Origin: Candidatus Sungiibacteriota bacterium
Lineage (GTDB): Bacteria; Patescibacteriota; Minisyncoccia; Sungbacterales; HO2-52-23
Assembly (NCBI GenBank): GCA_016432465.1
Contig: CP066690.1
Span: forward strand, 57,233 to 121,232
Direction of reading: 5' to 3'
Length of the DNA: 64,000 nucleotides
Below are positions 1-34,317 of this stretch, one piece after another. Each line of letters begins with the position of its first letter. Within the stretch, counting starts at the first letter, position 1. Made by a program: the position numbers and the translations under genes. The notes under the pieces are model-generated. The model did no database searches and had not been told where the DNA came from. It saw nothing but the letters and a program-made list of their open reading frames with translations.

Positions 1-75
1 GCAAAAGTGTTATTTTCAGCGGTTATTTCGCTCATACCCATAAATCTTATCAGAGCGTACCACACAATTCAATCC

Positions 76-20868: not shown

Positions 20869-21206
20869 CTCCCATTCACCTCCTTTCTGAAGAACTAAAT
20901 TCCCGTGGCGGAATTGCCACGGGAATTATTTTCCAAAAGTTTTTGATTAAAACCTTCTTAGTTTAGACAATAATTTCCATGGCAAAATATTGCAAAACAC
21001 CGCAACGACGTGCGGTTCGCTTCACATTATTAAACATGGAACAAAGTTGCTGCATAATAATTGATCTTGGGTGCTAGCAATGGTATTCCGGCCCGCGCTT
21101 CGCTGAAGCTTCGGCGAGGCGAGCAAACCCTATCCAGCACATAACAAGTTATGTACTGGACTCCGTTCTCCCGCTTTCAGCGGGATCACTTCGCTTTCCC
21201 AACATT

Positions 21207-21325
21207 ACTGGCGTACCCTACTTTCCCAGGCGCGGATTGGCACCAAGTATCATTGGGCCTAGATGCTTTCACTACTGAGTTCGGAATGGAATCAGGTGGA
21301 TCACATCTAGGTAAAACACCAGCAA
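21207..21325 (-). rRNA. rrf: 5S ribosomal RNA
   Basis: reverse complement matches 5S core CCACCTGAttCCATtCCGAACTCAGtAGTGAAA...GCGCCTGGGAAAGTAGG; terminal helix pairs. Confidence 0.85.
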
Positions 21326-21713
21326 AGTTCGGAATGCGAAACCAAACTTAACTTGGCGAGTCTCACCATATATTTTTGAGAAACTTCTCAAAAATTTATA
21401 GGCGGGCAGGTAATTAATGATCTATTAGTATCGCTCGGCTAAACGCATTGCTGCGCTTACACCTGCGACCTATCAACGTAGTCATCTTCTACGGATCTAA
21501 TACTAGCGGACATCAGAAATCGGAGATCGGAAATCAGAAAAGTTCTGACGTCTGATTTCTGAAATCTGAAGTCCGCTAGTTCGATACCTAATCTTGAGGC
21601 GTGCTTCGCACTTATATGCTTTCAGCGCTTATCACAACCGAACATAGCTACCCAGCGGTGCTCCTGGCGGAACAGCTGGTACACCAGAGGTTCGTTCATC
21701 CCGGTCCTCTCGT

Positions 21714-22354
21714 CACATTTTCTTCTATCACTAGAAGTGTAGACTATATCTTTGCCCCTTTGGATTTTGATCTAAAGTCGGGCATCGGCATATTATAATC
21801 AAGAATTTTCTTGACTATCCGTCCCGGCAATGCCGGGAACAAGTCGTTACGGGGTCATATTGACAAATTCTAGTATATCATGTAATAATGATATCGCCGA
21901 AATGAAAGGAGGACTCATGGCCCGAGAGTTGGTCGTTGACATGTTCTATTCAACGATTAAGACACCATGGATTACCTGCGATAAGTGTGGCTTTAAAGCA
22001 AAACAGTCAGATCTCAGATATGACGGATATTATAAGGATCATTCTGGTTTTAACCACCATTTTCACTGTCCAAGGTGTTATGAGTCTATTTTAATACCAA
22101 GCCTTTTATAGGCGGTATCATCAACCATTGCTCCTGACTTCCCGGGAGCATTTTTTTGTCAATTGACTTCCCACGGTATTAACTTTAGTATGTTTGATCG
22201 AAGTTCTCGGACCGCGAGATTTCTTCGCAAACTAAAGCATCCATGGCTAAGCCGAGTTTGACTCGGCCGCCATCCCGTCCCGCTTTTAGCGGGATTAGGG
22301 ACCGTTATTAGCCAAATTGTCATCGCGCATTACTGCGCGAAGTAGCAATACTTT
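21714..22354 (-). mobile_element. group-I-like intron in 23S at sarcin-ricin loop (exons rejoin to CCUAGU|ACGAGAGG)
   Basis: 5' exon ends in U, insertion ends in G, removal restores conserved CCUAGUACGAGAGGACC; 641 nt. Confidence 0.6.
21917..22111 (+). CDS. small zinc-ribbon protein encoded antisense inside 23S intron
   Basis: TTGACA-17-TAATAA promoter at 21860-21888, RBS aaaggagg 21905-21912, ATG 21917, CDKCG...CPRC motifs, hairpin+T7 terminator 22150-22178. Confidence 0.45.
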   Translation: MARELVVDMFYSTIKTPWITCDKCGFKAKQSDLRYDGYYKDHSGFNHHFHCPRCYESILIPSLL

Positions 22355-22405
22355 ACTAGGGACGACCCCTCTCAAGTATCAACGCCTGTGGTAGATAGGA
22401 GACCA

Positions 22406-22439
<34 letters not shown>

Positions 22440-22444
22440 GACTT

Positions 22445-22493
<49 letters not shown>

Positions 22494-22509
22494 AAGTCGA
22501 GCCGACATC

Positions 22510-23130
22510 GTATGTTCGCTTCGCTCACAACGCGATACCAATATACGAATGGCATGCGAATGATACGAATTGCGAATTTCCTCTATTACTAGAGGCATGG
22601 ACTATATCTTCATCCCCCTGCATGCCTGCGGAAGGAGCTCGCGTATTATATTTTGCTTAAAGCAAAATATCTTTCCGAACTTTATTCGGAAAAGTCTCTA
22701 CGGGGTTAATGCTTTTTTTATAGAAGCTCTGGTTTCAGCAAACTTAGCGACATCTTGAATAGCTTGCTGAATTTCAGTTTCAATAATATCAACCGGTCGT
22801 TTCCCTGAATCAATCTCCGCATCAGTCCAATTTCTACGACCAATCGGGTCTTCCAATTGTTGAAGTCGTGCAACGAGCCTTGACGATGCCTCGCTCAACA
22901 AAAGATTATTTTCTTCCAATTGATTCAGAAGTTCTTGGTTGTTTAATTGTAATTCTTCTTTCATATGCATAACTTCCCTCGGTATTATCCTATCAAATTT
23001 GGTTCAAAAACTCAATAGGATTTCACCGATATTAGCGAGATTTTTATGCAGGATTACTCCTGCAGCACCCCGATGATCGTGATGGCCAGTCACGTGCAAA
23101 CTAGTTAACCAGAGAACTAGCTAACTAATA
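22510..23130 (-). mobile_element. intervening sequence in 23S near the conserved ...CACCUC/GAUGUCGG... peptidyl-transferase segment (intron class undetermined)
   Basis: conserved GGCACCUC and GAUGUCGGCUC exon blocks separated by ~620 nt; boundaries lack canonical group I/II termini. Confidence 0.5.
22698..22970 (-). CDS. small coiled-coil protein encoded within 23S intervening sequence (sense to rRNA)
   Basis: 90-aa ORF with RBS gagggaag; heptad-rich; no HE motifs. Confidence 0.35.
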   Translation of the reverse strand: MHMKEELQLNNQELLNQLEENNLLLSEASSRLVARLQQLEDPIGRRNWTDAEIDSGKRPVDIIETEIQQAIQDVAKFAETRASIKKALTP

Positions 23131-23511
23131 AACTATTGTTGAGGTGCCGAACTCCGCCGTCGATATGAACTCTTGGGCGGAACTAGCCTGTTATCCCCAG
23201 AGTAGCTTTTGTCTGATAATCTTTGGCCTTGTTCTAGAAAGCGATAAATACCCACACCTCGGAACTGAATCCGAAGCGTGAATAATTACCATGGCCATCG
23301 GTTCACTAAGCTCTGCTTTCGCACCTGCGCGGGATATCCCCCTTGCAGTCAAGCCGGCTTGTGCCTTTACACGTCCACCCCGATTTCCATCCGGGGTAAG
23401 CCGACCTTAATAGACCACTCCATTACTTTTTGGGAGTGTAGTGCCCCACCAAAACTGCCCACCAGACACTGTTCCAGTTGGGCTTCACCGCGAAGCCCAC
23501 AGTTAAGTTTA

Positions 23512-23640
23512 AGGTTAAAAGTTTATTGTTAAGGTTGTGAGTTGTTAGTTTAAGTTAATGTTTAACCTAAACCAAAAACTTACAACCTAAACTTACAGGT
23601 TGCCAGAGCAACCGAAACTTTAAACTTAAAACTGTCGTGT
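23512..23640. repeat. AT-rich nested-palindrome element inside 23S
   Basis: gttaaggttgtgag...tttaagttaatgtttaacctaaac... related to 25185, 27305, 27843 copies. Confidence 0.55.
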
Positions 23641-24027
23641 GAACACTGCGGTGTTCCCAACCGGTTAGAATTTAAAACTTCAAAGAGTGGTATTTCACTG
23701 ACGGCTCCTCTTGATCCGGAAACCAAGAATCAAAGCCTGCCACCTATGCTACGCATCAAAGTTCTAAACCCAATATCAAGTTGCAGTAAAGCTTCTGGGG
23801 TCTTTTCGTCTAACCACAGGTATCCGGCATCTTCACCGGAATTGTATTTTCACCGGGCTCCTCGTTGAGACAGTCCCCTAGTCGTTACGCCTTTCGTGCG
23901 CTTCAGAACTTACCTGAAAAGGAATTGCGCTCAATTACGTTATCACCGAGCACTCAATTTTGGATTTGACAAAATTGTCAAAATTGGTTATGTTGAATAT
24001 GGTACGTTCTACCTACTGGAGGTAAAC

Positions 24028-24237
24028 ATGAAGTTCAAGGACTTGGAGATTGGGGATCATTTTGTTCTCCCAAACCATATCCCAACCAGGAACGGTATCC
24101 CTTCACCCATCGATGCTGTACAGCTTGAGGTTTTTCGTAGGATCACCACTCATGGACGCATTAACGTGCTGTCCGTAAAATCTTTGGCTCCAGGATACGT
24201 TAACCATAACGCTCCGGTCATCAAACTTATCATGTGA
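24028..24237 (+). CDS. small protein (69 aa) encoded antisense inside the L1931 intron
   Basis: TTGACA(23966-23971)-17-TATGTT promoter, RBS ggaggt 24018-24023, ATG 24028, stop 24237, hairpin gccaccgccggtggc + TTTTT 24242-24262; cassette bounded by perfect 18-nt inverted repeat 23946-23963 / 24270-24287. Confidence 0.45.
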   Translation: MKFKDLEIGDHFVLPNHIPTRNGIPSPIDAVQLEVFRRITTHGRINVLSVKSLAPGYVNHNAPVIKLIM

Positions 24238-24348
24238 TTTCGCCACCGCCGGTGGCATTTTTAAATAATCCAAAATTGAGTGCTCGGATCCTCTATGTCG
24301 CCATAGAGATCGGACTATATCTTACAAACAGAAGTCAGGTGTTGGAAA

Positions 24349-24912
24349 TCAGAAGTCAGAATGCTTCCGACTTCCAATATCCGATGTCTGATATCTGTTG
24401 TTCTGGCGTATAGTCTCTGAGGATTCAAGATATTGAGATGGTTTCTTACGATTCATTTGCTCTACTGTCCTCGCAATTTCTTTCATACCCTTCTTGGTTA
24501 GATGGATTTTCCGTTCCATCATATCAAGAATTTTTATGAATCGTTTGAAGTCACTTTGTTTTGCAGTACGGAGCGGATATTTCTGAAAGAAAGGAATTAT
24601 TTTCTCACGTATATCTTTCGTAGACCTAACACAATAACGATATAGCGGTTCACGGTGATTATCGTAACGCTTATTGATGAAAATTTTTCCGCAGCCGAAG
24701 AATTTTTGTAATTCTTCAAGAGCGAATAAACTTTTTTCACCTTGCGTTACCACAAACTCCGGAAAAACCTGCCATCCATTTTTAAGAATCCTATTACGAA
24801 AGACTCCTACAGAGAAACATCCTTCTCCGTCTACAAAACCAGTTATCCATCCCAAATAATAATCTTGCCTTTCCTGCTGATTATCTGCACTGGACACATT
24901 TTTACTTGGCAT
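24349..24912 (-). CDS. LAGLIDADG homing endonuclease (single-motif type)
   Basis: LGWITGFVDGEGCF dodecapeptide motif, 187 aa, inside intron and sense to rRNA. Confidence 0.85.
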   Translation of the reverse strand: MPSKNVSSADNQQERQDYYLGWITGFVDGEGCFSVGVFRNRILKNGWQVFPEFVVTQGEKSLFALEELQKFFGCGKIFINKRYDNHREPLYRYCVRSTKDIREKIIPFFQKYPLRTAKQSDFKRFIKILDMMERKIHLTKKGMKEIARTVEQMNRKKPSQYLESSETIRQNNRYQTSDIGSRKHSDF

Positions 24913-25184
24913 AATTTTAGAAGATTTTATCCCCTAAGGATAATTATACCTTAGTAGTGCCAGATACTCCAGACTTTCCAGCATATAGTCCCGACGTTTC
25001 ATCTAAAAATTAGGATGAAGAAGTCGGGATCCCGATTTTACACTATGATTATTTTATAAATAGTGCATCGGGACCAGATTTTATTAAAGCAGCGCGCTTT
25101 CTACTTTAAGACCCTTATAGTTAGGGCCGACATTGACGAGGGCTTGATACCTAGAGCCGCGAGGCGGCCTCGTATGTTTATAAG

Positions 25185-25325
25185 TTTGTAGTTAAAAGTT
25201 TTGAGTTTAAGTTAAAAGTGATTAGTTTAAGTTAACGTTAACCTAAACATTAAACTAAAAACTTAAACTTAGGAGGCCGCTAGGCCGGAACCTAGAACTA
25301 AAAACTATAAACTAATCGAGGTCGC
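25185..25325. repeat. AT-rich nested-palindrome element inside 23S (near E. coli ~1860)
   Basis: ...gtttaagttaaaagtgattagtttaagttaacgttaacctaaac...cttaggaggccgctaggccggaacc... Confidence 0.6.
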
Positions 25326-26151
25326 CCCGCGACCAAGGTATTTAACCTTCTCGCATTGGTCAGGCGTCACCCCCCATACATCCTCTTACGAGTTAGCGGG
25401 GAGCTGTGTTTTTGGTAAACAGTCGCCAGGGGTACTTTTGTTGCAGCCCCTAAGCCCTTGCGGGCCGGGGCAGACCTTATTGCGAACTTACGGTCGCTTT
25501 TTTGCCGAGTTCCTTAACGAGGAATCACCCATTCGCCTTAGTGTTCTCCACCAACCCACCTGTGTCGGTTTACGGTACGGTCGCATGCTGATATTTTAGA
25601 CGGTTTTCTGGGAAACGCGCTTTGCAAAATTTCTAATGGATTGCTCCAAAAGATTTTCTCCGCGCTTGGAACCGAGCATTACCTCCATGGACGGATTTTC
25701 CTATCCACGTTCCTTACGCTAAGAACGAAAATCCAATAATTCGCTTTGCATACTGCGTTCCGTTACGCCATCAAAACAACATGCGGTGCTGGAATATTAA
25801 CCAGCTGTCCATCAGCTACGGCTTTCGCCATTGCCTTAGGACCGACTAACCCTCAGTTGATTGCCATTGCTGAGGAAACCTTGGGTTTTCGGCGGTCCGG
25901 GCTTTCACCGGACTTGCGGTTACTTGTGCCAACATTCTCTCTTCTTAACGCTCCAGTCGCCCTCGCGGGTCAACCTTCACTGCATTAAGAATGCTCTTCT
26001 ACTGCTTGCGCAACTGCCAATTGCCAACCGCTAACTCTTAATTTTTATTAGAAATTAGAAGTTAGAAATTCGAAGTTGCGCAAGCCCGTAGCTTCGGTAC
26101 AACGCTTAGCCCCGAGTATCTTTGGTGCAGTGTCTCTAGACGAGTGAGCTG

Positions 26152-26194
<43 letters not shown>

Positions 26195-26923
26195 CGCTGT
26201 TTGAGAAACTCCACCGCCTTATTACACTTAGCGTTGATTTAGGGACCTTAGCTGACGATCTGGGCTGTTGCCCTCTTGCACGATGGAGCTTAGCCCCCAC
26301 CTGCTGACTCTTGGAATAACTATACGCGCATTCGGAGTTTGGTTGGTTCGCCGAGCTTTCGCCCTTACGAACCATCCAGTAGCTCTACCTCGCGTATCGT
26401 ATAATCCAAGGCTAGCCCAAAAGCTATTTCGAAGAGAACCAGCTATTACCAGATTCGATTAGCTTTTCACTCCTTACCACAGGTCATCCGAAGGCGTTGA
26501 ACGACCCACCGGTTCGGGCCTCCCCCCGATGTTACTCGGGGTTCACCCTGCCCATGGCAAGCTCATCTGGCTTCGGGTCTTTTGAATACTACCTACAAAA
26601 GCTTCTTAGCTTATAGCTTCCTAGCTTCCTAGGAACGAAAATAAACTCGCACCTAAAAAGCTAAGAAGCTAAAAAGCTAGAAAGCTATTGAAAACGCGCT
26701 ATTAACACTCGGTTTCCCTACGACTCGGTGCCTCGCGGCACTTAGTCAAGCAGTATCCAAAAACTCGTTGGCTCATTCTTCAATAGGCACCACAGCAGAG
26801 ATCAGAGGTCGGATGTCGGAAATCAGAATTTTAGTTCCGACTTCTGATTTCCGATCTCTGATCTCCTTTGTGTCCTTGTAAGCATATGGTTTCAGGTACT
26901 ATTTCACCGCCCTCACCGGGCTG

Positions 26924-26962
<39 letters not shown>

Positions 26963-27304
26963 GTTCCGGGAGTATTTAGCCTTGGCGGACTAGTTCCGCC
27001 TGCTTCCTGCCCAGTCTCCATACGGGGCAGTACTCAAGAACCCCGACGCACTATTAGAAATCTAACAATGAAGTCGGGGTCCCGACTTTACGTCGGGATA
27101 ATAACTAGGAGCATGCAATATTTTTCAAATACGGGGCTTTCACCCTCTTTGGCCGGCCTTTCCAGGGCCGTTCTTCTAAATAAATCGCAACTTTTTGCTC
27201 CTTCGGATCGCTCCGAGCGCTATTATCTTACAACCTCCCGGTCTCCATTAAATAAATTCAATAGAAACCGGGATTTGGGCTGATCCCTTTTCGCTCGCCG
27301 CTAC

Positions 27305-27450
27305 TGGGGGAATATATCAGTTTATAGTTAAAGGTTTTAAGTTTAAGTTAAAAGTTATTAGTTTAAGTTAGCGTTAACTTAAACTTTAAACTAAAAACTT
27401 AAACTTAGGAGGCCGTTAGGCCGTAACCTAAAACTAAAAACTGACATTCT
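27305..27450. repeat. AT-rich nested-palindrome element inside 23S (near E. coli ~200)
   Basis: ~95% identical to copy at 27843-27975. Confidence 0.65.
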
Positions 27451-27507
27451 TTTCTTTTCCTCCGCTTACTGAGATGTTTCACTTCAGCGGGTATCGCGCC
27501 AAGCACT

Positions 27508-27695
27508 CATTTCTATACACTTGACAAATTTATAAATATAAACTATGCTAAGATCAACCAAGGGGGTTTGGTTACAACCACCGATAGCCTGGCCCGGTCC
27601 TACCGGACTTCCCAGGCCGCTGGTTGGTTAGACCCCCCTGCCACAGGTTTTCCCTGTGGCCTCTTTTTTGAGTACAGAAATGAGTGCTCGGCGAA
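27508..27695 (+). promoter_or_regulatory. antisense promoter-terminator cassette within 23S 5' domain expansion helix
   Basis: IR cgccaagcactcatttct / agaaatgagtgctcggcg flanks TTGACA(27531)-17-TATGCT and hairpin ccacaggttttccctgtgg + CCTCTTTTTT (27636-27668); no ORF with RBS. Confidence 0.4.
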
Positions 27696-27842
27696 TGCGT
27701 TTTACGCAAACGGGTTTCCCCATTCGGACATCGCCGGATCAAAGGTTGCTCGCCACCTCCCCGACGCTTATCGCAGGCACGCCACGTCCTTCATCGCCTC
27801 CGGAACCCTAGGCATCCACCATATGCTCTTAATTAATTCTGT

Positions 27843-27975
27843 TCATAGTTAAAGGTTCTAAGTTTAAGTTAAAAGTTATTAGTTTAAGTTAGCGTTAACT
27901 TAAACTTTAAACTAAAAAACTTGAACTTAGGAGTCTCGCTGTAAGCGGGACGAAACCTGAAACTAAGAACTGATT
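27843..27975. repeat. AT-rich nested-palindrome element in 23S 5' leader
   Basis: near-identical to 27305-27450 copy. Confidence 0.65.
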
Positions 27976-28538
27976 TTACCTGCCCGCCTATAAATTTTTG
28001 CTTATTAGCCAAAAAATTATGGGGCGGGAATACAATTTTTTACTTCGACTATGCTCAGAATTCTAATACTGAGCCTGCCGAAGTATACCTGTTTATTCAG
28101 TTTTCAAGATACTATCCTTATCTGCCATCGGATATCCACCTGCTATAAACGGATATCCGACGGCAGGTAAACCCGCGCACTAATTCTGAAATGGTTTTGT
28201 CTCAACTGAGATTATTTCCGCGGTGTCGCCTCTGTCAAGCTAAACTTGACGTCGGCTCCATCAGTACCAACACTAAAGCCTCAATAGAATTAGTGCGGGG
28301 TCAATTGTCCGTTTCCAAATTTTCTGCGCCTGATGGCTTAAAAATTTGGACGGAACAATTGAAAAACCGCGTAAGTACGCGGCTCTTTCACACAGTATCT
28401 AAAAACTGTAGGCTAAATTTCAATCATTTTTTGAGCCGCTTTATTTTTAAATTGTAGACGGGTTTTCATTGTTATCGCAATTATACTCCCGGCCCCATCT
28501 TGCTGTCAACAATATCTGTGGATAAGCTGTCAAATACA

Positions 28539-30891: not shown

Positions 30892-32886
30892 TCAAAACTT
30901 GACGGTTTCCCCAGGCTTGATTACTCTTTTTTCCTTCTTGGTCTCTGTTTCCGATCCATTTTTTTCTTTTAAGGACTCTTCTAAAACTTTCCTCAATTCA
31001 GAAACGTTGGTTGCCGGATGCTGATTTCCGTTTTCTTTTCTGGCGCCTTCTCGTGGTTTTAATTCTGTTAGCGAGACCGGTCTTGCCCCCTGCGGCGTTT
31101 TGACTATGGGTTGAGAGCGAAGGCCGGGACGCGAGTGCGATGGTTTTATTTCTGAACGGGGTGGCACTGTCTGTTTTTGTTCTCTGCGTTCCGGAAAAGG
31201 ACGCCTAACTTCCGGGCTAAACACTCTGGGATAGCGTTCCTCCTCACGCGGTCTCGCGGCCGATACTGCCTTTTCTGCCGGCCGAGTTCCTGCTCCTGCC
31301 GTAGCGGCAAATTCAATCCCCAGCCCTCCCAAGGTTTGTGAAAAACGCGCCTTTCCAACCTGTGGCATACGTTCGGGCAGAGGCACCAGTTTCCCCTCCT
31401 CAATTTGTTTAAGACAAGTAAAACAATACACAGGCCTTCTGCCGTCTGGTTTAAAAGGCACCGCTGCTGTTTTCCCGCAGTTCCAACAAGTAGTCTCATA
31501 CTTCCCCTCCTCGCCGCTCCCTCCCCCACCCCCGTCATCGCCAACCATACCGCTCCACTGTGTGATTTTTTCCTCTACCTCCGGACGGGACCGGGCATAA
31601 CGCTCCCGGGAAACCTTAATAATTTTCTCTTTGACTGTCGGGTCGGTTTCAAACTGAATGGGCGGCAAAGTCACGGCAGAAAATGGCCGGGAGGTAACTC
31701 CATCCACCATGAGTTTTAGATAAATATTATAGTTGGGCAAACCAATAAGATCCTGCTGCATGAACTCCGGCATAAACTCCTTTTCCAGAAATTCAGCATC
31801 CGCCGCACCCACCCTAAAAGTAATCATGGTGCCCACATTGCCAAAAACAGCATCTCTAACTTTGGTGGACACGTCGGTTACCAACTGTCCCACATATTGA
31901 TGGGCGAGTATCAGGTTCAGGCGATATTTTCGGGCCTCAGAAAGAATGGCAGCAAAAGACTCCGTGGCAAAATTTTGAAACTCGTCAACATAAAGATAAT
32001 AGTCCAGGCGGTCTTCCTCCGGTATACGTACCCGCTCCATGGCGGCGAGCTGAATTTTAGTAATAATCATGGCGCCAAGGAGCTGAGAATTATCTTCCCC
32101 GATTTTGCCTTTGGAAACGTTCACCAACAATATCTTCCCCGTATTCATTATCTCCGGGATGTTAAGTGTGGATGTTGGCTGACCAACAATGTTACGGATA
32201 AATGAGGTATTTAAAAACTGCCCGACTTTATTCTGTATCGGGACAATGGCTTCATTACGAAACTGGTCGCGCCACGTCTCATACTCATGTATCCAAAAAG
32301 ACTTCACCACCGGGTCTTGGACTTTGGCGACAATTTTTTGGCGGTAGTCTTTATCTACCAGAATCCTTGGGATACCCAAAAGGGTTGTACCGGGCGTATC
32401 CAGAAGCGCCAAGATACAATTCTGGAGTATGTATTCCATACGGGCTGACCAGACGTTTGCCCAAATCTTGGTGAAAATTCCCAGAAGGTCCGAAACCACT
32501 AAATGTTTATATTTGGGGTCCGGAACTTCAAGCACGTTGAAACCAATAGGGAACTCCGAGTCCACCGGGTTGAAATAAATCACATCGTTGGTGCGCTCCG
32601 CAGGGATCTGAGCCAACACCTCTTCTACAAATTCACCGTGGGGATCAATAATGCCAATACCTCGTCCGGCCCTGATATCCTGAAGTGCGATATTCTTTAA
32701 AAGCGCTGTCTTGCCCACACCGGTCTTACCAATAACGTACATGTGCTGTCTTCGGTCATTGGTTTTAGTACCAAAAACTCTCTCATTTCCGCGAAAGTTA
32801 CATTTTCCGATGAAAGTTGTATCGTTAGCTTTACCTTTAACGGTCATAACTGTATTAATTATACCATAAATTTTAAGATACGGCAA
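30892..32886 (-). CDS. VirD4/TraG-like P-loop ATPase (AAA_10/T4CP-like) with C-terminal zinc ribbon and disordered tail
   Basis: Walker A GKTGVGKT, Walker B LYVDEF, ILAHQ...QL block; CWNCGK...PVYCFTCL zinc ribbon; paralog of adjacent gene. Confidence 0.5.
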   Translation of the reverse strand: MPYLKIYGIINTVMTVKGKANDTTFIGKCNFRGNERVFGTKTNDRRQHMYVIGKTGVGKTALLKNIALQDIRAGRGIGIIDPHGEFVEEVLAQIPAERTNDVIYFNPVDSEFPIGFNVLEVPDPKYKHLVVSDLLGIFTKIWANVWSARMEYILQNCILALLDTPGTTLLGIPRILVDKDYRQKIVAKVQDPVVKSFWIHEYETWRDQFRNEAIVPIQNKVGQFLNTSFIRNIVGQPTSTLNIPEIMNTGKILLVNVSKGKIGEDNSQLLGAMIITKIQLAAMERVRIPEEDRLDYYLYVDEFQNFATESFAAILSEARKYRLNLILAHQYVGQLVTDVSTKVRDAVFGNVGTMITFRVGAADAEFLEKEFMPEFMQQDLIGLPNYNIYLKLMVDGVTSRPFSAVTLPPIQFETDPTVKEKIIKVSRERYARSRPEVEEKITQWSGMVGDDGGGGGSGEEGKYETTCWNCGKTAAVPFKPDGRRPVYCFTCLKQIEEGKLVPLPERMPQVGKARFSQTLGGLGIEFAATAGAGTRPAEKAVSAARPREEERYPRVFSPEVRRPFPERREQKQTVPPRSEIKPSHSRPGLRSQPIVKTPQGARPVSLTELKPREGARKENGNQHPATNVSELRKVLEESLKEKNGSETETKKEKRVIKPGETVKF

Positions 32887-34317
32887 CTAAATAAGCGGCT
32901 CGGGGTGACTGCCAGTAATTTTATCTTCCTTGGGGAATGAGGTTTTGTGAAAAACCGTTGCTTCTTCCTCTGCCTTAATCAGGCGCCCTACCTCCTCAAC
33001 ATTTACCGCATATTTGCGGCGTGACGATAGTATAATCCTGTCTTTATACGAAGGGTGCGGGGAAGCAAGAACCCCCAAGGTCTCTGCCGAGAACGGATCA
33101 TAAGTCTCACCGTCTATCGTCTCTTTTATGTAGAACTCCTGCGTTCCTAAATTTATCATGTCTTTGGCCTTGAAAACCGGGGTCATCTCAACTTCTAATC
33201 TTGCGGCGTCGTCTCCGCCTACACGAAAGACTATCAGGGTCGCCACGTTGCCCAGAACAGTGGCCATAACGTCAGGGATTAGCTGCGCCGTAAATTGATG
33301 GGCCACGGTAAGATTAAGTCCGTATTTTCTTGCTTCAGCAAAAAGATTAATAAAAGAGGCCGTAACCAGATTATGAAACTCGTCAACATAGAGATAAAAA
33401 TCAATTCTTTTTTCTTCGGGTATTTCGGCCCGCGCCATACCGGCCTGCTTAATTTTGGTGATAAACATGGAACCAAAAAAACTGGAATTCTCCTCGCCCA
33501 ACTTACCCTTAGATAAGTTAATCAGGAGAATTTTTCTATTATTCATTATCCATTCAAAATCAATCTTATTTTCTTTTTGGGCAAAGATATTTCGGAGCAT
33601 GGGCATAGACAAAAACTGTCCAAGTTTATTAACCAGAGGGATGATGGCATCCGTATCAAACTTTTCAGACCAGTCGGCAAACTCCACCGCAAAGAAACGC
33701 TTAACCATATCATCCGTTATGTACTCAATTACTTTTTGGCGATAAGGCCGATCGGTAAGCATAGATATCATTCCCCGCATGGTGGCTTCGGGATAGTCAA
33801 GAAGGGCCAACGTGGTAAAACGAAACACATGCTCAAGGCGCGGCGTCCAGTTGGCGCCAAACTGTTTCTCCATTACCTCAATAAGTCCTTGCGCCATCTG
33901 GTGTTTCATCTCCGGCGGCACTTTTTGCAACGGATTAAAAGAAACCGGCCAGTCATGATCCGAAGGATCAACCAAAACCACATCATCAATCCGTTCCTCT
34001 GGAATAAACTTCAAAATTTCCTCAATCACGTCTCCGTGGGGATCAATAAAACAAAAGCCGTAACCATAAGCGATGTCCTGACGCACCAAAAGCTCCAGCA
34101 ATTTTGATTTCCCTACTCCGGACTTACCCACTATATACACATGGCGCCTGCGATCCTTACGTTTTACGCCAAAGATGTATTTCTTGGTCTCAAGCGGGGC
34201 TTCATAGTTGGTGCGGCCGACAAAAGAAACCGCTCGCGGATCCACCTGCTGATACACGGGCAGCTCCGGCGGCGGAGGCCCATATTTACTTATATGTATT
34301 CTTCCTTCCCGAGCCAT
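32887..34317 (-). CDS. VirD4/TraG-like P-loop ATPase (AAA_10/T4CP-like)
   Basis: Walker A GKSGVGKS, Walker B LYVDEF, TVAHQFTAQL; abuts downstream paralog with no gap. Confidence 0.5.
   Translation of the reverse strand: MAREGRIHISKYGPPPPELPVYQQVDPRAVSFVGRTNYEAPLETKKYIFGVKRKDRRRHVYIVGKSGVGKSKLLELLVRQDIAYGYGFCFIDPHGDVIEEILKFIPEERIDDVVLVDPSDHDWPVSFNPLQKVPPEMKHQMAQGLIEVMEKQFGANWTPRLEHVFRFTTLALLDYPEATMRGMISMLTDRPYRQKVIEYITDDMVKRFFAVEFADWSEKFDTDAIIPLVNKLGQFLSMPMLRNIFAQKENKIDFEWIMNNRKILLINLSKGKLGEENSSFFGSMFITKIKQAGMARAEIPEEKRIDFYLYVDEFHNLVTASFINLFAEARKYGLNLTVAHQFTAQLIPDVMATVLGNVATLIVFRVGGDDAARLEVEMTPVFKAKDMINLGTQEFYIKETIDGETYDPFSAETLGVLASPHPSYKDRIILSSRRKYAVNVEEVGRLIKAEEEATVFHKTSFPKEDKITGSHPEPLI

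Follow-up and report, generated by a model that had tools for sequence, protein, structure and literature searches.

The 23S ribosomal RNA (rRNA) gene of a Candidatus Sungiibacteriota bacterium (assembly GCA_016432465.1) contains a small insertion in helix 9, here called C3. The gene lies on the minus strand of a 64,000-nucleotide (nt) stretch of contig CP066690.1 (positions 57,233 to 121,232), which was analysed as a whole and is referred to as the window. C3 (27497-27694 of the window) is probably a helix-9 intervening sequence (IVS), one of a family of IVSs that carry, to judge from their signals, a self-contained transcription unit antisense to the rRNA. Two further cassettes of the same 23S gene, C2 (23946-24287) and C1 (21860-22178), are discussed together with it. 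The original prediction, made from the letters of the window and a list of its open reading frames (ORFs), had placed C3 at 27508-27695, slightly narrower than its true limits. It described there an inverted repeat enclosing a TTGACA-17-TATGCT promoter and a hairpin plus T-run terminator on the antisense strand, and all of these elements are present.

Structure of the helix-9 cassette

The location in helix 9, which had also been proposed, is confirmed by the Rfam alignment of the minus-strand 23S, where the hairpin next after helix 8 has a 170-nt insertion at its apex, between Escherichia coli positions 130 and 178; the insertion size of C3 is 177 nt. Helix 9 is a classical site of IVSs excised by ribonuclease III (RNase III) (PMC4990558). 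C3 is bounded by a 22-nt inverted repeat (27497-27518 / 27672-27693) that is 91% complementary, and both of its mismatches become G-U pairs in the rRNA sense only. In that sense, the right arm (27672-27694, minus strand) is the 5' strand of helix 9, made up of the native stem CCGAGCAC and a 12-14-nt extension, UCAUUUCUGUAC, and the left arm (27497-27518, minus strand) is the 3' strand of the extended helix, made up of GUAUAGAAAUGA and GUGCUUGG. On the plus strand, antisense to the rRNA, a sigma-70-type promoter-like site (27521-27549) starts 2 nt inside the left arm. Its -35 box is a perfect TTGACA (27521) and is followed at a 17-nt spacing by TATGCT (27549), for a promoter score of 10/12. The predicted intrinsic terminator (27640-27669, plus strand) is formed by the hairpin GCCACAGG-TTTTC-CCTGTGGC (27640-27660), with an 8-bp mismatch-free stem (6 G-C pairs) and a 5-nt loop, and by CTCTTTTTT (T6) after it. 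It is one-directional, as the rRNA sense has an A-run before the hairpin and AGGGGGG after it. The whole insert folds at -101 kcal/mol in the rRNA sense (z = -10). In this predicted pre-rRNA fold, the TTGACA is unpaired and no complementary TGTCAA is present on the other arm.

The chance occurrence of these signals was evaluated with 5000 dinucleotide shuffles of the 162-nt interior of C3, both strands being scored. A promoter of at least 10/12 appeared with a probability of 0.0075 and a terminator with a probability of 0.0054; the two never appeared jointly (0/10,000), which gives an estimated joint chance below 1e-4.

The original prediction had drawn attention to a 10-mer, GAGTGCTCGG, shared by C3 and C2. 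The 10-mer occurs exactly three times in 64 kb (23946 on the minus strand, 24278 and 27682 on the plus strand), with one G-to-A variant at 27499, and all four sites are ends of C3 or C2; cassette copies of this type in the window are therefore two, both in the 23S gene. The kinship of C3 and C2 stands, but the 10-mer is not a sequence proper to the element: eight of its ten bases (GTGCTCGG) are the native helix-9 stem, and C2 carries a copy of this rRNA stem. Neither C3 nor C2 is flanked by a visible direct repeat of the kind left by a target-site duplication. The Intron_gpI model has no match in 27480-27710 at E <= 10, so that C3 has no catalytic core (P3-P8, AAGAUAUAGUC element).

Helix-9 inserts in related 23S genes

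A metagenome scan anchored on the universal GAATGGGGAAACCC plus CCGAGCAC retrieved 18 loci, corresponding to 16 23S genes and two transfer RNA (tRNA) false positives. The flanking rRNA of these relatives, one of which comes from a 0.1-um groundwater fraction, is 79-87% identical to that of the window. The 8-bp stem CCGAGCAC/GTGCTYGG closes a loop of 7-9 nt in loci L106, L108/L111, L115 and L119; since it closes such a short loop in insert-free relatives, this stem is the native helix 9 of the lineage and not element sequence. Helix 9 bears hairpins of 38-83 nt in L104, L105, L110/L117 and L113, and inserts of 276-350 nt in L109, L114, L118 (=L120) and L121, the latter representing four distinct 23S genes in five metagenome records. 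The presence of cassettes is sporadic: among the distinct 23S genes with the stem, five have a cassette, four a short hairpin and at least four the native loop. The 38-nt insert of L113 (~880-940) keeps the left-end motif TTTTGGACTCT seen in L118 and L121 and has neither promoter, cargo nor terminator; it is probably a remnant after cargo loss. A scan of genome contigs for AGCACTCAWTTN{2,12}TTGACAAA returned 98 stretches, roughly as many as chance would give; a second arm was absent from all of them, and the best-looking one (L083) proved to be purH coding sequence.

The helix-9 antisense cassette family was defined from L109, L114, L118/L120, L121 and C2, and C3 was compared with it. Read on the strand opposite the rRNA, the four large inserts, C3 and C2 have a common plan: the native stem, a 12-nt extension, TTGACA, TAnnnT, the cargo, a hairpin with a T-run and the other arm. 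The comparison with the 23S of relatives that the original prediction had called for thus found conserved signals, with an antisense TTGACA, a -10 box and a hairpin plus T-run in L109, L114, L118=L120 and L121, an outcome that favours the prediction. In the left-end alignment of seven cassettes, TTGACA is the sole invariant block and lies a few nt inside the arm; the -10 boxes (TATGCT, TATGTT, TATCTT, TATAAT, TACTCT, TATTAT) follow at spacers of 16-17 nt, and the antisense hairpin and T-run are found just inside the other arm in all cassettes. A stringent pattern search (TTGACA-16..18-TAnnnT) in ~34 kb of 23S sequence, from the window and ten relatives, detected six antisense sites, all in cassettes, and one sense site. 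The sequence between promoter and terminator in L109, L114, L118=L120 and L121 is unrelated.

The arms of the cassettes also evolve as a paired structure. The stem extension adjoining the native CCGAGCAC has the consensus TYAWTTTTGGAY, of which C3 has a diverged form, TCATTTCTRTAC; the extension of C3, TCATTTCTGTAC, matches that of L118 at 9 of 12 positions and its partner arm has changed in step. Over 21 pairs and six cassettes, 97.6% of the cells pair in the rRNA sense and five pairs show compensatory changes on both sides. The pairing or covariation score was reached by none of 500 shuffles, and slid registers pair at 23-44% only. On the other strand, each G-U pair of the stem, the two apparent mismatches of C3 included, would read C-A. 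The G-U pairs and the covariation in the rRNA sense therefore argue that the stem is maintained as RNA in the pre-rRNA, which is what defines an IVS of the RNase III type. Promoter and terminator, for their part, are meaningful only on the opposite strand. On its layout of stem, predicted promoter and predicted terminator, C3 is a member of the helix-9 cassette family and, on its cargo, a non-coding variant of it; the ribosome-binding site (RBS) and small ORF that also characterize the family are absent from C3 and doubtful in L109. The antisense orientation of the cassettes is to be expected of units that contain an intrinsic terminator and have to persist within an rRNA gene.

The cargo of C3

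The positions of the promoter and terminator predict a non-coding antisense RNA of ~114 nt (27556-27669, plus strand), starting ~7 nt after the -10 box and ending at the U-run. The cargo proper is a GC-rich imperfect hairpin of 75 nt (27562-27636, plus strand) without any homologue found, and the cargo and terminator together fold at -56.7 kcal/mol (z = -4.95). The RNA product of ~100 nt that had been suggested from the sequence agrees with the predicted length. None of the relatives was found to share this RNA cargo. The claim that C3 lacks an RBS and an ORF is borne out: the ORF scan gives only two ORFs, neither of them usable. One, of 28 codons, has its start within the -10 box; the other begins with TTG and continues past the terminator into rRNA sequence. 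The C3 RNA has no usable start codon or RBS.

Searches for relatives of this RNA were negative. Rfam 15 (both strands, E <= 10) returned sub-threshold noise only, with a best score of 16 bits against a threshold of 41 and no signal recognition particle (SRP) RNA, 6S RNA or transfer-messenger RNA. A resemblance of GUCCGGUAGGA to the domain IV motif of SRP RNA was rejected, as no SRP model scored. No sequence similar to the cargo was detected by blastn in the window or the fetched loci, two scans of viral contigs (one with the cargo core, the other with a both-ends pattern) gave nothing real, and exact look-ups of two spurious ORFs overlapping C3 found no match. A miscalled antisense-23S ORF used as bait retrieved 37 antisense-rRNA "proteins", none with C3-type sequence. 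A type I toxin-antitoxin system was also rejected for C3, which has no ORF. The C3 RNA may be a captured small RNA gene, a processing guide as in Helicobacter pylori, or a relic.

Cassettes C2 and C1 and the coding cargo

The sister cassette C2 (23946-24287, plus strand) has the repeat core CCGAGCACTCAATTTTGGAT, a TTGACA-17-TATGTT promoter, an RBS, a 69-amino-acid (aa) ORF (24029-24237) and a terminator (24242-24256). An Rfam group I intron model matches 24291-24511 on the minus strand (E = 1.2e-6) and ends 4 nt from the C2 arm; the 3' exon resumes at ~23931, so that C2 belongs to the 3' tail of the L1931 intron, with 14 nt between it and the 3' splice site. Because C2 has a complete native helix-9 stem and a cargo homologous to those of L114 and L121, the simplest reading is that a helix-9 cassette was copied, together with its stem, to an ectopic site. 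The -35 box of C2 lies in a perfect palindrome, TTGACAAAATTGTCAA (23966-23981).

The analogous unit C1 (21860-22178, plus strand), within the group-I-like intron at E. coli position ~2656, combines TTGACA-18-AATAAT and an RBS with a 64-aa ORF (21917-22111), whose product has CxxC..CxxC and is zinc-ribbon-like, and with a terminator (22129-22150). C1 is closed by a 9-bp repeat, ATTGACAAA/TTTGTCAAT, corresponding to the -35 box and its complement, so that TTTGTCAAT, immediately behind the terminator, is the pairing partner of the -35 box. The palindrome of C2 and this pairing in C1 could each serve as an operator or just contribute to the closing stem. No sequence common to C1 and the other cassettes was found. 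The family of antisense units that had been postulated for the rRNA gene consequently holds for C3 and C2, but C1, which shares the design and not the repeat sequence, is to all appearances a parallel case: an analogue, not a demonstrable family member.

An RBS and a small ORF are found in L114, L118, L121 and C2. The ORFs of C2, L114 and L121 are homologous (61-69 aa, M.F.DL..GD.F ... VIK.I; BLASTP E = 5e-8) and have 11 invariant columns. Four further homologues of the C2 protein were detected by an exhaustive HMMER search (E 1.5e-10 to 2.4e-5), on contigs without rRNA. In the three contigs that were read (L122 1140-1450, L123 385-740 and L125 1-350; motif M.F.DL..GD.FVLPNH...VIKL), the gene is free-standing: a TTGACA-17 promoter of its own precedes it, and a hairpin with a T-run is also present. 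In their signals as well as their ORFs, the coding cassettes thus resemble ordinary small genes that happen to sit in an rRNA helix. The C2 protein has no family in Pfam or PHROGs; the best AlphaFold2 model of its family has a predicted local distance difference test score of 76, and a Foldseek comparison against the PDB gave no match at E < 1. A word-based protein search found no homologue for the C2 ORF or the C1 ORF, and an exact look-up of the C2 ORF was also empty.

The other cargoes are of different kinds. The insert of L118 (2706-3067, equal to L120 151-512) encodes a hydrophobic protein of 76 aa, the only cargo that looks toxin-like. The transcript made in the rRNA sense runs opposite to its gene, an arrangement that recalls type I toxins, the IVS RNA taking the part of the antisense RNA. 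L109 has no convincing RBS and its cargo is not notably structured (z = -1.1), a value that led to its rejection as a second RNA cargo.

Proposed mechanism and alternative explanations

The two ends of the insert extend the native 8-bp stem of helix 9 to an uninterrupted 22-bp duplex in the pre-rRNA. RNase III would then cut this duplex, and the insert would be removed or extruded with the ribosome unharmed. On the plus strand, the promoter inside one arm would direct a transcript from ~27556 to a stop at 27664-27669, ~114 nt in all, and the terminator would act in the antisense direction only, so that rRNA synthesis would not be stopped. The antisense RNA would be able to pair with the excised IVS, and its transcription would run against that of the rRNA operon; its level would therefore be expected to stay low while rRNA is made at a high rate and to rise once that rate declines. 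In the relatives, this transcript would usually be the messenger RNA of a small protein, whereas in C3 it would be a hairpin RNA without an ORF. These ideas can be extended to the helix-9 IVSs of 23S genes in the Candidate Phyla Radiation (CPR): the site could be a safe harbour for exchangeable mini-genes, with the stem to ensure that they are removed from the ribosome, the conserved rRNA flanks as homology arms for their spread between species by recombination, the abundant sense IVS RNA and head-on transcription as repressor, and a cargo turned on only when rRNA synthesis drops. We regard this extension as speculative and rather unlikely to hold as a whole.

Several points weigh against the interpretation of C3 as an IVS with an antisense transcription unit. 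Cleavage by RNase III is assumed from other bacteria, antisense transcription is predicted from promoter and terminator sequence, and the -10 box of that promoter, TATGCT, matches the consensus at only 4/6 positions. The cassette carriers share a common ancestor, so that the conserved layout does not amount to five independent observations and the all-antisense orientation counts as two or three independent cases only. The cargo hairpin, taken alone, folds equally well on both strands: the number of pairs leans towards the plus strand (26 pairs with 4 G-U, against 22 with 2 G-U on the minus strand), but the energies are equal (-31.2 kcal/mol on each), and the strand choice therefore depends on the flanking signals only. 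Finally, as no relative has yielded the same RNA cargo, the C3 hairpin is without covariation support and could be filler.

Other explanations have to be weighed against the same evidence. C3 could descend from a protein-coding cassette that lost its ORF, in which case promoter and terminator would be relics and the hairpin RNA, if made, inert. This is suggested by its size, the shortest of all (177 nt against 276-350), by the hairpin that it alone has in place of an ORF, by a cargo without homologue and by the most diverged extension (TCATTTCTGTAC against the consensus TYAWTTTTGGAY); L113, with only the TTTTGGACTCT end motif, resembles a remnant reduced still further. Yet C3 has kept a perfect TTGACA as its -35 box and a mismatch-free terminator stem, and a long near-perfect hairpin (z ~ -5) without detectable similarity to the ORFs of the other cassettes is not the product of random deletion, which makes such decay unlikely. 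A functional RNA of a different kind would be a processing guide, pairing with the insert in the nascent pre-23S so that a long perfect duplex directs RNase III and promotes or tunes removal of the IVS. Its complementarity would be perfect by construction and H. pylori offers a precedent of pairing followed by RNase III cleavage (PMC6582327), but the insert already has its own 22-bp stem, and relatives fill the slot with unrelated protein genes, the sequence of the transcript not being what is conserved; we consider a guide function quite improbable.

The terminal inverted repeats, the two copies with related ends at unrelated sites of one gene (helix 9 and the intron tail) and the patchy distribution among relatives recall instead a short inverted-repeat element of the miniature inverted-repeat transposable element (MITE) type, moved by a transposase encoded elsewhere and containing a promoter by accident. 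Nevertheless, no target-site duplication is visible at C3 or C2, the outermost 8 bp of the repeat belong to the native helix 9 of the rRNA, all copies seen except the ectopic C2 occupy one site, and neither a copy outside rRNA, in the window or the fetched loci, nor a transposase with matching ends was seen. Little probability can be given to this origin, slightly less than to the guide. The simplest alternative is a plain IVS or expansion segment in which only the rRNA-sense fold matters, the promoter and terminator strings being by-products of an AT-rich hairpin. It would be in keeping with the great stability of that fold, with at least nine other hairpin inserts in the same 23S that have no such signals, and with the view that the short non-intron inserts of CPR 23S genes are probably RNase III IVSs (PMC11270868). 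It leaves unexplained why a TTGACA that is unpaired and partnerless should be invariant in seven cassettes, why the spacing to TAnnnT is kept, and why the signals lie on one strand, with an RBS and conserved ORFs downstream in relatives. Given also the low joint chance of the signals, this reading is already disfavoured, and very improbable.

The host 23S rRNA gene and its operon

The host 23S gene (21404-27842, minus strand) is ~6.4 kb long according to a BLAST map against E. coli rrlB. The Rfam 23S match covers 23046-27842 on the minus strand and ends at 23046 because of large 3' insertions; in the comparison with rrlB, domains V-VI extend past this end to about 21404. The 5S rRNA lies at 21205-21324, and neither a 16S rRNA nor a tRNA gene is present within the 64-kb window, the operon being 23S-5S. 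The extra 3.5 kb of the 23S gene correspond to three group-I-type insertions, at E. coli positions ~1931 (1.17 kb), ~2500 and ~2656, and to about ten hairpin insertions. This 23S matches the CPR rRNA architecture, notably the intron sites 1931 and 2657, described by Tsurumaki et al. 2024 (PMC11270868); together with the relative from a 0.1-um groundwater fraction, it points to a probable CPR (Patescibacteria) host. Each of the three group-I-type insertions terminates in a AAGATATAGTC element followed by a small hairpin. The ~1931 intron contains a single-domain LAGLIDADG ORF (24349-24912). The ~2500 intron has an ORF of 90 aa in the rRNA sense (22698-22970, minus strand), with GAGGGAAG and a possible promoter upstream, that matches no family. 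The ~2656 insertion falls inside the sarcin-ricin loop region.

Several of the hairpin inserts belong to two repeat families. The first is a ~128-nt AT-rich hairpin (aagtttaagtt...) with four copies (23504-23633, 25179-25306, 27315-27442 and 27836-27963), the full-length ones being 66-91% identical; three copies are inside the 23S at unrelated helices and one is in the leader, directly upstream of the mature 5' end. The second consists of hairpins of atcagaaatcgga-like units at 21502-21580, 24318-24400 and 26791-26872, which correspond to sites near the 23S 3' end, inside the L1931 intron and in the helix-25 region. Miscalled antisense ORFs of relatives (P0008 and P0010, with "EIRISD" motifs) suggest that similar atcagaaatcgga-type hairpins occur at helix 9 of other organisms.

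The 23S-5S operon is preceded by a promoter that matches the consensus at 12/12 positions, TTGACA-18-TATAAT (28480-28509, minus strand); the organism therefore uses the same promoter consensus as the cassettes. A second near-consensus promoter (11/12) is found upstream of the operon at 28211-28238 on the minus strand. Leader and trailer are complementary over 42 nt (81%; 21372-21413 / 27976-28017), probably forming a processing stem. Two adjacent ORFs with TrwB/TraG-type coupling-protein domains (30892-34317, minus strand) lie 3 kb from the rRNA operon.

Significance and comparison with known systems

If C3 and its relatives are indeed IVSs with antisense units, part of the unexplained load of insertions in CPR rRNA would be gene-carrying, and annotation pipelines that mask rRNA would systematically miss the cassette genes, which is consistent with the lack of word-based homologues for either window ORF. 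A simple and testable link between rRNA synthesis and cargo expression would also be provided, and a promoter, a terminator and a tolerated insertion site in an essential single-copy gene would offer a handle for organisms with scarce genetic tools. Were the safe-harbour idea true as well, a growth-rate-inverted switch would be wired into the rRNA gene, with a small protein, a toxin-like membrane peptide or a small RNA as cargo.

The Correia elements of Neisseria are short, have terminal inverted repeats and an internal promoter, and give an RNA hairpin that is a substrate of RNase III. C3 differs from elements of this type in that it has no visible target duplication and no dispersed copies were seen in the window, and in that its outer repeat is native rRNA. 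RNase III IVSs, known from helix 9 in Alphaproteobacteria and from helices 25 and 45 in Salmonella, Leptospira, Coxiella and others, are closer: they too are sporadic, and at helix 9 the loop is likewise replaced by a sequence whose complementary ends form a long stem. The known ones have been described as passive stem-loops or as bearing a sense ORF without its own promoter, whereas C3, the excision of which is presumed, appears to be an antisense unit of promoter, cargo and terminator. A gene inside an rRNA IVS is also found in the case of the S23p (23S_rRNA_IVP) ORFs of Coxiella, Leptospira, Xanthomonas and CPR insertions. The Coxiella IVS ORF has a poor RBS, needed an engineered promoter and RBS for expression in vitro, and its protein is believed not to be produced in vivo (PMC4990558). 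The present cassettes differ from these in being antisense, with their own predicted promoter, RBS and terminator and with proteins that have no Pfam match, C3 having no ORF at all.

Among CPR 23S genes, Tsurumaki et al. (PMC11270868) reported "uncharacterized short insertions" of <200 bp, non-intron and without annotated ORF, which they suggested to be RNase III IVSs. C3 is alike in class and probably in host group. That survey, the most complete one of insertions in CPR rRNA, considered ORFs by Pfam only and does not mention strand or terminators; the words antisense, promoter and inverted repeat do not occur in it. For C1 and C2, a parallel exists in the antisense homing-endonuclease genes of nuclear rDNA group I introns (PMC9548176), which are also protein genes on the opposite strand of an insertion in an rRNA gene. 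These are eukaryotic and tied to intron mobility, whereas the cassettes are bacterial, have tiny proteins or an RNA as cargo and, in the case of C3, lie outside an intron. In H. pylori, a cis-antisense RNA pairs with the 23S-5S precursor, which RNase III then cleaves (PMC6582327). The predicted C3 RNA would similarly be a small RNA opposite an rRNA precursor, whose pairing gives an RNase III substrate, but the H. pylori RNA overlaps the leader and not an insertion in the mature 23S, and it does not belong to a repeat-bounded, cargo-swapping cassette.

No description of a repeat-bounded antisense promoter and terminator unit inside a bacterial rRNA helix was found in the literature searched, a search that was incomplete. 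Helix-9 IVSs, ORFs borne by IVSs, antisense endonuclease genes in eukaryotic rDNA introns and antisense RNA against an rRNA leader are already known. Yet the usual view is that rRNA genes contain no other genes and that bacterial IVSs are passive stem-loops, and an antisense unit with interchangeable cargo, as proposed here for helix 9, would depart from it on both counts.

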